A stretch of DNA of 63,859 nucleotides, filler included, from Intoshia linei (lineage: Eukaryota > Animalia > Orthonectida), in the NCBI GenBank assembly GCA_001642005.1. It is 5 parts of 5 records of this genome, joined end to end, with 100 filler letters (N's around TTAATTAATTAA, not from the genome) between each part and the next. Parts side by side here need not be neighbours in the genome. Positions count along the whole stretch, not along the records: positions 1 to 24,950 come from LWCA01000516.1; 4 more parts are not named here. One strand, written 5' to 3'. The translations under genes and the position numbers were made by a program. Numbering within the stretch: position 1 is the stretch's first letter; each line of letters opens with the position of its first letter. This document shows, one piece after another, positions 15,363 through 23,168 of the stretch. Below the pieces are notes generated by a model that worked only from the letters and a program-made list of their open reading frames with translations, had not been told where the DNA came from and searched no databases.

Positions 15363-18300
15363 TTATAAAAGTTCATATTGTCGCAAATGCATTCGTTGTA
15401 TTATATCGCGACAATCATTAAAAACTCTTTTAATGTTTTCAGTGTCAACTGCACAGGTAAAATGAGGATAACAAAAATGTTTAGAATCTCTTTGATCTTT
15501 TGAGTTTGATATGGTTAATTTCTAATGAAATAATAATTAACATAATTACAATGAAAAATAATTACCAAAAATTGATCACGTATAAAAAATTTAGCTCGTA
15601 AAACTTCTGAATCTTCAGATCTATCATCTTTTACTAAAATATAAAATAATATATTTTAAAGTATATAAATACCGTCACTAGGAATAAGATAGGTTGAAAA
15701 ATCACTGAAATAGTTTTCTAGTTTTGATATTCCGCTGAGTATTTTTTCAGTCAACAAATCTTGTTTGTTTAAGAAGAGTATAACGGAAATATTTTTTAGC
15801 CATCTATATAAAAAATTATGAATTATTGCATAGCTAAATTACGTTATCACCGATTATTCCATATCATGGTAAAGAGGTCCAAAGATTCCCTTAAGCGGTT
15901 TTGTTTATCGTCCTCCCTGAGTACCATATTGTAGCTTGAACAAGCAGTCACAAATATAATTGCCGTAACGTCGTTAAAACACTGTATCCACTTTTTTCGT
16001 TCATCTCTCTGTCCTCCGACGTCAAACATGCTGAAATATTTATGTTTATATGTATTTACATTATAATTTATTACTGAAATTGGACTTTGTCAATGGAAAA
16101 TCGTGTTTCAAATATACCAGATGTTAGAACTCGACATCGCAAAATATCCTATGTAATATAGTTTGTATTATATTTTTATTTTATTATTATTGTATTTATT
16201 AATATTTAATTTGGATAAAAGATATAATTTGTTACCTGTTCTACAGGGAAATAATCTTCTTTTGCAATTTCATTGTTTCTATCCAAAAAACTATTTAAAA
16301 TTTTAATAAAAATAAAAATTATTGTATAAAAAAATTAAAAGAATCTTGAAATTAAAATTTATAATTTTAAAATATCTATTAAAACGTTAGATATTATTTA
16401 GTTAATTATTATTTGTTATGATAAATAAAATTACTATTTGGCACAATCAATAAGTTGAAATTCATGGGATCGATCAAAGGTTTGTTTAATGCCTTTATCT
16501 TTCCAAAGACGATCGATGTGTTCAAAAAATATGTTGGGGTATTCGTATTCAACAACGTTGGCTAAGCTTTGAATAAAATCAACACATTCTTGATTTCTTT
16601 CCACTTCTAGCGTAACGGGTGGGTCTATTCTGCTCATGGCACCAGTTAAAACCTATATAATATAAATATTTAATAATACATTTTAAAATTACAAGCATAG
16701 CATCTTTTATATTTCTCTTTATATCTTTGATTTTTATTTGGCATTCTCTAATTTATAAAATATTAAAATGATATAATTATTACATTTTAATTAAAAGGTG
16801 TATTTTTTTACCGAAAAATTACACCTCCACTATTTTTCGATTCCGTTATTTAATCAAAAAAATTTTATTTTTACAAATTTCAAACTCTAATGGAGAAATA
16901 CTGCATCAAATTTAACAACGATTTAAAGATACAACCTTAGATATCTATACGGACACAAAGTATCAAAGTATCACAAACGAAACTAAAAGTTATATAAATT
17001 TGTTAATATCATTTTTATATTTATTACAATCCTTTGCAATATTGGTGAAATTCGACTTAAATATGTTTATAAAGTGAAGATTCGGTTAATTATTGATACA
17101 TAATTGGTATTTTTAAGTATTTATTAAATTGGTAGTGAATATAATCATCACATCACAATGTGATAAAAATGGACAAAGACATAAAATTGATGTTTCCAAT
17201 GTTATATTTAGTTGGTTCGAACTTTAATTATTTTATTTCTATGTATGATATTTCTAAAAAATATAAACACGATGTCAATAATAACACAGGTAATAAAATA
17301 TATTTTTTTAGAAAAAGAAGTAAAATCAAAGTTAGACAGTAAACCAAAGAAGAGGAAGCCACCAGTAATAAAACCGGAACATTCTAAAGTGTTGGTGGGA
17401 GTGAAGATCAATACAAACAGTAATAATGATTGCTGGTACTTTCGTAACCAAAGATCTTTTTAGAACGATTGATATCCACTCGATCATTAAGGCAAGGGCT
17501 TACTTAGAAGTAACTAAAGCTCACATGGTGAACTTTAAAGACCTTTTGAGAAAAGTTGCTGTGTCCCTTGTTACTGAGCTCTTAACAATGTACTGTACTT
17601 CTATCAATAAAAACTACACGTACATCACGGTATATCCTAGCAAAGGAAAAAACGTTGAAAAAAATTGTTCATATTGTACCTGTTTCAATTTGAATAACTC
17701 GAATAAACATATAATGCTTTGTACTGACAAAGATCCTCAATTTTATTTGTGTTATAGACGAGTTGAAAATAAAACGAAGACGAGAAAAAATAATAAACGA
17801 GATAATGAAAATAATATAGATAAAAATAGTAAAATTAGGAAAAACAGTGGTAATAAATCTTTATCAGATTTAGATGGTCCGAAAGGAGCTGTCTTGTCTG
17901 ATCATAGGCTACCTAAAGTGGAACCTATTGAACCCGGAACCGTTTTAATGACTACAAAAAGCATCTTCACTAATGATGTATATGGCCTGTCGTATGATGT
18001 CAACAGTAATATGTCAAGATAAATAAATATTATAGATATATATATATATTTATATTTATATATATAGATAATTTAATGTCAAGCAGGTTACGTTCCTGCG
18101 TTCAAAGACCATGAAGGGAAACGTGTATTGGATAAAACTAAATGTTTGACATATATAACCCCATCGTAAGATTCAAGAGCTGTTCTATTTAGTGAAGATT
18201 TATATACCAAGAAGAGAGTCTTAGATCTACAGTACACAAACAATAATGTGGAGACATTGCGGAATTTCCTATACAGCAAGATAGGTACAGCAGAGCAAGT

Positions 18301-21300: not shown

Positions 21301-23168
21301 TTACTTTATTTTTAATATTATACACACATTTGTCTAATAAATTAAAAAAATGGGATAACAATTGTTTTTAAAATTCTTCACACAAATGTTAAAAAACAAA
21401 AAATTAAGATTGAATAATTCACTTTAAAGTAAAAAGTAATGTGATAAGTAAAAGTAAAAGATTTTTAAGTTAGATTTTCAACGTGAATTTATTTTTTTGG
21501 TATAATAAAAATGTGCCTTACAGAGCTATGTGCTGTTTGTACGTAGTACATAACAGTCAACCTAATATAAATATATTTAATTAGTCATATTATATTGTGC
21601 AAATGTTTAATAATTACATTTTTCTAAACTCAAACCAAAATTTCTTAATTTTCTATCAATAATATATTTGACATCAAAATGAATATATTTAGTATTGTAT
21701 TTGTACTATTGGCAATTGTGAATCTAACAGTTGCCAGAAAGTGACTGCAATGTGTTAGGTATAAGAACTGAAGATGGTCATTGGTTTCAAATGTTCAATA
21801 TTAAAAATGTTAAAATGTGTGAACAGGGAGAATAAATAAAAGGATTATAAAGTAAATTCCTTCCGTCAGGATGATTCCTTGAATTATGAGTTGGACAAGT
21901 TAATAGTTCAAGTAGAGGACAGGGATTTGTACAACATAGAAAAAGACATTATAATGTCCATTAACTATATAATCAGTTTTGCACTAGATGCCTTTCGGGC
22001 GCCGCAATTCAATCAATAATCATATATGTACGTGCATAAGATAGGACTAATGGTATATAGGGGAATGCACATTGTTCCAGAGTCGATATCCTGGAATTCC
22101 AAAGGACTATGCATTAAAAAAGGGTATGAGCAATACTGTTACAACAATACGGTAAATCTGTGGGTGGATACTAGACTATGGTTGTTCTACATATATAACT
22201 GAATTGCCAAACGGTAATAGGTATATAAATAGAACTAACATAATAATCTTTAGTCGAGACAATCTAAAATATGATTTCGAAGGTCCACTATATCATTCCA
22301 TGATATATATGGAACATGAGAGTGTCGTAGTTGGTCGTAACTACACTCCTTCCTTCTATAAACCAAATCTTATCAAAATATTTTCCGATATTATTACATT
22401 TAATTTGTTCTACTTCATTTCATTTTTTATTAATTTGATAATTCTAATATAATCGTTTGATTTCATATTATAAAATTTTATTTCAAAAACGAACATTAAA
22501 CAATTAAATTGATTCCATTCCGAAGCAGACCCAACTATACTTTATTTTATATATGATTTATATAAGTTACATTTTTTAATTTAATAGGTTGAAAATGGTT
22601 CTAGTTACGACATACAAAAATAATTTCATAGTTCCAAAGAGGGCCTCGGTATGGTGGTTTCGGCTCTACAATGGGTAATAGAATAATAACAATGTAGAGT
22701 ATGTTTCATTCTAATTACATCAGGGTGTGTTACACAAGAAAGTTTAATAACCGCTTAGATAGTGACTCTATTTTTTAATTATTTTCTAAGCCAACAAATA
22801 AATGGATATCACTTTTATGTAAATTCCATTTTCAATGATTGGGGTTTGAAAAAGATGGATAAAAAATAATTTTTTTTTTTTATTTCAATTGAATTTAGTC
22901 ATTAAAATTGTAAATATTACTCTTTATCAAATCCATGGACGTGTAGAATACGCATTTGTTTAACTATAGTGGATTTTCCAGATTCTCCTGCACCTAAATG
23001 TTTGATGAGTATTCATAAATGCACAAATTTACCCAATAGCAGTAATCGATGAATACTGTGTATTTTAGATTTGGCTTTACGAAGTTCCTTCTCGATTCTT
23101 TTATTGACATCTTTATCATTACGTTCTTGTTCACTCTGTCCTTTTCCAAAACATCCAATAGCTCCCAT
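15363..23168 (-). CDS. GNAS: Heterotrimeric G protein alpha-s subunit, 10 exons (23168-23033, 22993-22921, 16747-16693, 16652-16435, 16290-16236, 16148-16075, 16030-15851, 15803-15673, 15633-15566, 15521-15363)
   Basis: MGAIGCFG..., [64 protein letters not shown], and the Gs-diagnostic C-terminus [10 protein letters not shown]. Confidence 0.97.
17212..18022 (+). pseudogene. Probable endogenous viral fragment, possibly rhabdovirus matrix (M)-like, frameshifted
   Basis: Lys-rich N-terminus ([23 protein letters not shown]), then [13 protein letters not shown], which loosely recalls VSV M TVRSNRPFRTYSDV. Intronless and next to clear viral fragments; the similarity is weak. Confidence 0.35.
18076..18643 (+). 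pseudogene. Endogenous rhabdovirus-like nucleoprotein (N) fragment #1, N-terminal half
   Basis: [65 protein letters not shown] aligns by eye with VSV N (LRGYVYQGL..HVNSYLY..GKAGDTIGIFDLV) and rabies N (LDPDDVCSYL..GNYKTNIADRIEQIF). In-frame stop near 18167. Confidence 0.7.
18700..19590 (+). pseudogene. Endogenous (+)ssRNA virus RdRp core, Alsuviricetes/Martellivirales (virga-like), decayed
   Basis: VNSLFSPIF; motif [12 protein letters not shown]; motif [16 protein letters not shown]; motif C LFMGDD (after a frameshift); FNLPAK; motif [20 protein letters not shown]. All collinear with tobamovirus RdRp, with several stops and frameshifts. Confidence 0.92.
19890..20173 (+). mobile_element. Ty3/Gypsy gag-like fragment inside the viral cluster
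   Basis: [54 protein letters not shown] matches the capsid C-terminal pattern followed by the start of a zinc knuckle. Confidence 0.65.
20392..21300 (+). pseudogene. Endogenous rhabdovirus-like nucleoprotein (N) fragment #2, from a different virus than #1
   Basis: Across frameshifts: [76 protein letters not shown] has LRGYVYQGLKSGNV, GDTIGIFDLVSL, ASFRYGTIVSRF, VADEMVQMMLPGQEIDKADSYMPYLIDF. Confidence 0.75.
21395..21565 (+). mobile_element. Helitron-like 3' end copy between viral N #2 and G
   Basis: Homologous to 2675-2907; ends gtacgtagtacataacagtcaacCTAA|T. Confidence 0.6.
21679..22452 (+). pseudogene. Endogenous rhabdovirus-like glycoprotein (G), internally deleted
   Basis: Signal peptide [19 protein letters not shown] joined to [16 protein letters not shown] (VSV G CKHWGVRLPSGVWFEM), then LWVD, ELPNG (VSV EIGPNG), [14 protein letters not shown] and a C-terminal TM helix. 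Contains frameshifts and stops. Confidence 0.7.

Follow-up and report, generated by a model that had tools for sequence, protein, structure and literature searches.

Antisense endogenous viral elements (EVEs) clustered under a host promoter are already known from Aedes mosquitoes, where core clusters for Piwi-interacting RNAs (piRNAs) contain EVEs that are transcribed by readthrough from the promoter of a host gene (10.1101/2022.08.22.504762). The rhabdovirus EVEs of Aedes are mostly nucleoprotein (N) and glycoprotein (G) genes lying beside co-oriented Ty3/gypsy elements (10.1101/127498), and hybrid virus-gypsy complementary DNA (cDNA) arises there by recombination during reverse transcription (10.1101/438911). 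In a mollusc, antisense small RNAs with a 5'U arise from what is probably a rhabdovirus N EVE, and the earthworms of the same report had no virus-derived small RNAs (PMC6085071). Here we describe a locus of comparable anatomy in the orthonectid Intoshia linei, found in a window of 63,859 nt (63.9 kb; the whole stretch of DNA analysed, from assembly GCA_001642005.1). At least three viruses have left sequence, about 3.0 kb in all, in the second intron of a G-alpha(s) gene, which is 6.2 kb long.

The Aedes core clusters and intron 2 have in common that several virus families, mostly antisense, are transcribed from a host promoter. Intron 2 shows several unrelated viruses in one locus, a co-oriented Ty3/gypsy piece and inserts antisense to a host-promoter transcript. 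The mosquito clusters, however, start behind the end of a gene and have been shown to yield piRNAs, whereas the orthonectid locus is a spliced 6-kb intron known from its sequence; it resembles the Aedes clusters in anatomy but, not being a readthrough tail, falls outside their class. With the gypsy-linked EVEs of Aedes aegypti it shares the dominance of N and G, a gypsy neighbour of the same polarity and a proposed origin by template switching, but it has a gag fragment only, with no long terminal repeat (LTR) found, in a far smaller locus and a compact genome, about 1.3% of which consists of LTR elements. The mollusc EVE likewise concerns a Lophotrochozoan host, rhabdovirus N and negative-sense, host-driven RNA; it is a single element with small-RNA data, whereas intron 2 contains several viruses in a known intron, read from genomic sequence.

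Genes of the viral RdRP (RNA-dependent RNA polymerase, RdRp) family were noted earlier in the I. linei proteome (PMC6396948). That report and ours agree on the presence of viral RdRp sequences in this animal, but the passage concerned does not describe a locus, its orientation, any clustering or pieces of rhabdoviruses, and its seven supplements contained no match. A search of the literature that did not extend to bioRxiv supplements, the genome paper or most other subscription papers returned no account of the locus, of rhabdovirus EVEs in orthonectids or of antisense pieces from several viruses stacked in a single intron; PMC11114477 does not mention orthonectids. If piRNAs are made from the intron, EVE-based antiviral memory would reach beyond mosquitoes to an animal that is among the most reduced, with an intron instead of a readthrough tail as the precursor. 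Even if passive, the locus is a fossil trace of orthonectid infection by a nege/virga-like virus and by rhabdoviruses of two deep lineages, for which the searches made turned up no earlier EVE description.

An intron of the G-alpha(s) gene holds relics of unrelated RNA viruses

The host gene, on the minus strand, matches the Pfam G-alpha family, and we take it to be of subtype s from motifs such as its C-terminus (Table 1). The original prediction had contrasted its small introns with a single one of 6173 nt, and spliced contigs bear this out. Contigs from four of six sequencing runs (X1-X4) were aligned over 15000-18640 only; the RNA-type contigs (X2, X3 and X4; three of the four runs) skip seven small introns, 39-144 nt in length. 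In X3 and X4, which belong to two studies, position 16747 is joined directly to the letters of exon 2, showing that 16748-22920 is removed. The length of intron 1, 39 nt, comes from the sequence only. No contig of X3 or X4 lies over 17196-18640, and this is not taken as evidence on expression. The median intron of I. linei is 57 bp (PMC6543705). No assembly gap interrupts the gene, again as predicted: there is no N between positions 1 and 24742, and the first stands at 24743.

Viral pieces were identified by fetching natural viral and transposon genes, building profiles from them and scoring the unrepaired DNA with frameshift-tolerant alignment. The main profile sets comprised 50 N, 47 G, 54 matrix protein (M), 25 gag and 120 RdRp sequences; the controls were codon shuffles and windows of equal length from elsewhere in the sequence, beyond the intron, and profile ranges were picked after first looks. 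A Pfam scan of the intron covered 19 frames. Five pieces could be identified, namely two N pieces (N1 and N2), an RdRp, a gypsy gag fragment and a G piece, all of them lying on the plus strand and so antisense to the host gene's RNA; with the N1, N2, G and gag profiles the other strand scored no better than background. Six plus-strand pieces had originally been named, and the profiles uphold these five but not the sixth, an M-like piece discussed below. The Pfam families proposed for checking gave a similarly divided result, in that RdRP_2 exceeded its cut-off, Rhabdo_ncap stayed below its own for N1 and the G pieces had no Pfam match. With Pfam alone, then, the RdRp passes and N1 is only hinted at. 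Profiles of the rhabdovirus phosphoprotein (P) and of the N-terminus of the large protein (L) found nothing, rhabdovirus gene-start and gene-end signals gave only weak, common matches, the ESM Atlas returned no usable match, and locus scans with the RdRp, the N1 family and gag were empty.

Alpha-like RdRp. The RdRp core has the firmest identification. Pfam RdRP_2 (PF00978) matched three pieces of it (E 6.4e-6, 3.8e-17 and 6e-13), two scoring 62.7 and 48.9 bits against a cut-off of 27 and the third 25.7, and the 120-sequence profile gave E 9e-22. Among those 120 motif-selected sequences, the top scores fell to nege-like genomes (DiSB-ORF2, SP24) and to one with a coat like that of tobacco mosaic virus, at no more than 34% identity. 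These scores mark the piece as a nege/virga-like polymerase, from a phylum other than that of the rhabdoviruses. A homologue search with it found nothing.

Rhabdovirus nucleoproteins. N1 matched Pfam Rhabdo_ncap (PF00945) with E 0.021 and 14.2 bits, under the 26-bit cut-off, and its paralogue P0004, 61-65% identical to it, clears that cut-off with 35.9 bits. Against the N profile N1 reached z 12.4, a score equalled by none of 100 shuffles and none of 194 windows. For N2 the collinear profile match had z 8.4-9.9 (0 of 100 shuffles, 0 of 100-104 windows), with each half outscoring all controls; its single pieces had no Pfam match. Both are at most 22-24% identical to the 50 fetched N genes. Because N1 and N2 are 13% identical over 127 columns, compared with 61% between N1 and its paralogue, they are to be read as derived from two different viruses. 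A shallow N1-family alignment failed to detect N2. In a tree of N genes the two were grouped at 77%, but on very long branches, and we do not take this as kinship.

A homologue search with N1 returned five proteins, four of them named Intoshia linei. One, P0003, a public 642-aa 'hypothetical protein' and the only sequence returned by the N2 search, maps in eight segments to the plus strand of intron 2 and is a gene-prediction artefact stitched together from the intron relics. P0004, P0005 and P0006 are rhabdovirus relics of the N1 family on three other I. linei contigs; in P0004 the C-terminal half of N precedes the N-terminal half, as in tandem copies.

Rhabdovirus glycoprotein. HMMER scored the G piece at E 0.009 against a profile of 20 genes and at E 0.1 against that of 47 genes. 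It carries a large internal deletion, passing from a signal-peptide-like start straight to about profile position 240. Profile positions 240-410, which lie outside the membrane anchor, scored z 6.7 (0 of 100 shuffles, 0 of 148 windows); the match leans on one motif, without which z falls to 3.4 (1 of 100 shuffles as high), or to 1.2 with a smaller profile. A second match to the G profile, at 468-764, was rejected because the sequence is a Tc1/mariner transposase, picked up falsely by the membrane-proximal part of the profile; a Tc1/mariner remnant (DDE_3) occupies about 450-998 on the minus strand of the window.

Gypsy gag and its junction with N2. The 25-sequence profile recovered the gag fragment as the best hit of the window (HMMER E 2.7e-4; the runner-up had E 7.8), with z 7.8 and neither 200 shuffles nor 188 windows scoring as high. 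There was no Pfam, PDB or fold match, and the AlphaFold model (pLDDT, the model's own confidence score, 41) was too poor for a fold search to be meaningful. An AT-rich insert within gag, at 20164-20237 on the plus strand, has GT..AG ends and is treated as an intron in the public gene model. The fragment ends at about 20290-20310 and the N2 match begins at 20398, with a start placed at about 20340, leaving a gap of about 30-100 nt. This stretch has 34% GC and no AT-rich spacer, as opposed to the spacers elsewhere (21-24% GC). Because of this close adjacency without an AT-rich spacer, gag and N2 probably arrived together as one piece, and the junction would fit a virus-gypsy hybrid cDNA.

The 205-codon frame. 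The piece first named M-like is an open frame of 205 codons, a length expected by chance with a probability of about 3e-5 for the whole intron. Against the 54-gene M profile it scored z 2.1-2.9, with 6-13 of 126-128 windows equally high, and M tests overall ranged from z -0.5 to 2.9. For the C-terminal part of piggyBac transposase, a profile of 20 sequences gave z 4.9-5.1, one of 15 held-out sequences 3.5 and one of all 35 sequences 3.1 (0-2 of 128 windows as high; HMMER not significant). On these scores piggyBac would fit as well as M, and neither is decisive. A homologue search found nothing, and with pLDDT 36 a fold search of the AlphaFold model was likewise meaningless. Separately, large contigs of entries G001-G005 (loci L232-L331), classed as bacterial or archaeal genomes, contain many piggyBac and gypsy elements of animal type, probably through eukaryote contamination.

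Clustering is a stronger signal than shared orientation

Profiles of N, G, M and RdRp recovered no viral piece from the other 57.7 kb of the window, the lone G match being the Tc1 transposase, and this clustering is a stronger signal than the common orientation of the pieces. The proposal that at least three infections contributed to the locus is sustained by the divergence of N1 from N2, set against the similarity of N1 to its paralogue, and by an RdRp from another phylum. That host transcription yields antisense viral RNA also stands, as it follows from the position of the intron within the pre-mRNA. The heritable antiviral memory put forward in the original prediction is a plausible hypothesis, weakened by the decay of the pieces and by an orientation statistic that falls short of the one claimed.

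Origin and possible role of the intronic relics

The account that we rank highest, while placing it just short of an even chance, is that intron 2 acts as a trap in which decayed antisense pieces, made when gypsy reverse transcriptase copied viral mRNAs, accumulated over several insertions to form a candidate one-strand source of piRNAs. Non-retroviral RNA needs a host reverse transcriptase to enter DNA. LTR elements would be almost the sole source of that enzyme in I. linei, because they make up 1.3% of the genome and the shares of long interspersed nuclear elements (0.02%) and Penelope elements (0.002%) are tiny (PMC7943196 supplement 1). Copying of viral mRNAs into cDNA by the gypsy enzyme is the likely route and, with template switching, would explain why gag lies close to N2 in the same polarity. 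The remaining pieces probably represent separate insertion events, since AT-rich spacers and host repeats part them from one another. As the locus is an intron, each G-alpha(s) pre-mRNA would bear antisense viral sequence, part of which might be processed into 1U piRNAs directing Piwi against related viral mRNAs, and antisense inserts might be kept by selection. I. linei has three PAZ-PIWI proteins, one Dicer and no cellular RdRP (PMC7943196 supplement 15). Protection at the present day is doubtful, and less likely than piRNA production, because the pieces are broken (1-8 breaks each) and no close virus was found.

A number of observations weigh against such a trap. The shared orientation, for which a chance of 1/64 had been claimed, amounts to only three to four independent draws, or 1/8-1/16, because gag and N2 are probably one arrival, G may share a virus with one of the N pieces and the sixth piece has no assigned polarity. 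All five identified pieces contain stops or frameshifts, from one break in 483 nt (N1) to eight in 873 nt (N2, where the count depends on the alignment), and homologue and locus searches found no close viral relative. The three PAZ-PIWI proteins may be of either the Ago or the Piwi subfamily. The intron is spliced out of assembled transcripts, as opposed to the readthrough behind a gene that feeds the Aedes clusters. Ordinary host repeats have gathered in it too, and introns of about 1.1 and 1.8 kb in a neighbouring Zic gene suggest that intron 2 may be a general sink. EVEs are, moreover, not confined to intron 2, as the N1-family relics at three other loci demonstrate. A stronger version, in which the locus is an active antiviral piRNA cluster without a promoter of its own, embedded in an essential gene, its excised or retained intron feeding Piwi and its antisense trapping producing a heritable, ordered record of infection by at least three RNA viruses, appears unlikely. 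In that version new cDNAs would perhaps be added mainly at one end, the pieces towards exon 3 being the least broken; an age gradient along the intron was considered and rejected, the break counts being too few and alignment-dependent.

A passive sink, with gypsy-made viral cDNAs and host repeats accumulating in an insert-tolerant intron, no small RNAs and no immune role, is a real possibility, though we think it rather more doubtful than probable. The common polarity would then reflect chance, co-copying with gypsy RNA or the loss of sense inserts that disturb splicing or 3'-end formation, and the small number of independent orientation draws, the two host repeats in the same intron, decay that looks neutral and the dispersal of N1 paralogues in the genome are all consistent with it. 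Polyadenylation hexamers provide a further, weak argument: on the host strand of four viral pieces AATAAA/ATTAAA occurs once where 6.3 would be expected, and a control with 97 natural N and G genes lowers this expectation to 5.0 (post hoc P about 0.04). The whole intron, however, has 31 such hexamers on that strand against 20.6 expected, so there has been no overall purge of these signals, and a sink leaves unexplained why at least three viruses occur within 6 kb and none in the other 57.7 kb. The pieces could instead have entered as one block, built elsewhere, for example in a piRNA cluster or as a composite cDNA, so that polarity would be a single draw and the promoter incidental. The co-oriented, packed pieces would suit such a block, and the swapped halves of P0004 indicate that concatenated N copies exist in the genome. 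We consider it improbable nonetheless, as the first two pieces have a flat DNA depth of about 14, with no close second copy seen there, no terminal repeats flank the block among the largest repeats listed, and the uneven numbers of breaks are a weak fit to different ages.

An assembly chimera, with separate EVE loci fused through TA-rich repeats, seems very unlikely. It draws on the fact that none of the contigs listed spans 15000-18640 or bridges the TA-rich spacer before N1, that the contig alignment extended only to 18640 and that the best DNA run, X1, may be the source of the window itself. The junctions that the original prediction wanted checked are backed in part, by the joining of exons 2 and 3 in transcripts and by contigs up to 18640, but not at that spacer. 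Against a chimera speak the lack of an N gap and even-depth DNA contigs of X1 over the exon-intron boundary (16386-16792), the repeat and the 205-codon frame (17059-18022) and N1 (18078-18640), the latter two at a depth of about 14, near that of the flanks. X1 also contains 74% of sampled words of 15300-23400, and short contigs of X2, from a second study, lie at 17785-17963 and 18413-18603.

Coordinates and neighbouring features

The first of the two short host repeats in the intron has a summed DNA contig depth in the thousands, compared with about 14 alongside. Neither these repeats nor the deletion in G figured in the original prediction. Rfam matched no family in the two stretches searched.

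Table 1. Features of the G-alpha(s) locus and its second intron, in window positions.
Feature	Position	Strand	Remarks
G-alpha(s) host gene, 10 exons	15363-23168	-	ATG at 23168; stop 15363-15365
G-alpha(s) exon 1	23033-23168	-	
G-alpha(s) exon 2	22921-22993	-	
G-alpha(s) exon 3	one boundary at 16747	-	adjoins intron 2
G-alpha(s) intron 2, spliced out	16748-22920	-	6173 nt, GT..AG, phase 2; from sequence and X3/X4 contigs
High-copy short host repeat, MITE/SINE-like (miniature inverted-repeat or short interspersed element)	16976-17166	.	copies at 26089-26279 (88%) and 6425-6570 (72%)
205-codon open frame	17405-18022	+	candidates: rhabdovirus M or piggyBac transposase C-terminus
Rhabdovirus-like N1	18078-18640	+	covers profile 10-170 of 428 (5' 40% of the gene); flanked by TA-rich spacers; one in-frame stop
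Alpha-like (Martellivirales-type) RdRp core, motifs A-C	18700-19604	+	about 3 frameshifts, 2 stops
Ty3/gypsy gag fragment	19901-20300	+	capsid C-part and zinc knuckles; contains AT-rich insert
Rhabdovirus-like N2	20340-21270	+	profile about 10-290 of 428, matched at 20398-21270; several frameshifts and stops; start about 20340, inferred
Second short host repeat	21458-21583	.	copies at 2791-2906 (85%) and 12705-12805 (77%)
Rhabdovirus-like G	21679-22407	+	signal-peptide-like start, then profile about 240-470 of 536; about 2 frameshifts, 3 stops

Elsewhere in the window there are two divergently oriented Zic-type zinc-finger genes, at 10052-14692 (plus strand) and about 2200-4127 (minus strand); the former is the one with the two large introns. 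Antisense within its 1.8-kb intron, at 13459-14253 on the minus strand, lies a frame of 91 + 172 codons split by one stop, which had no significant Pfam or PDB match and could be another intronic insert. A presumed hAT-like remnant, recognised by its motifs and without a Pfam match, lies at 28024-28931 (plus strand), and two gypsy-type reverse transcriptase remnants stand on opposite strands at 61302-63358. At 43652-47842 (plus strand) there is one uninterrupted open frame of 1396 codons, although the genome is intron-rich; from its motifs we take it to encode a Sec7-type ArfGEF.

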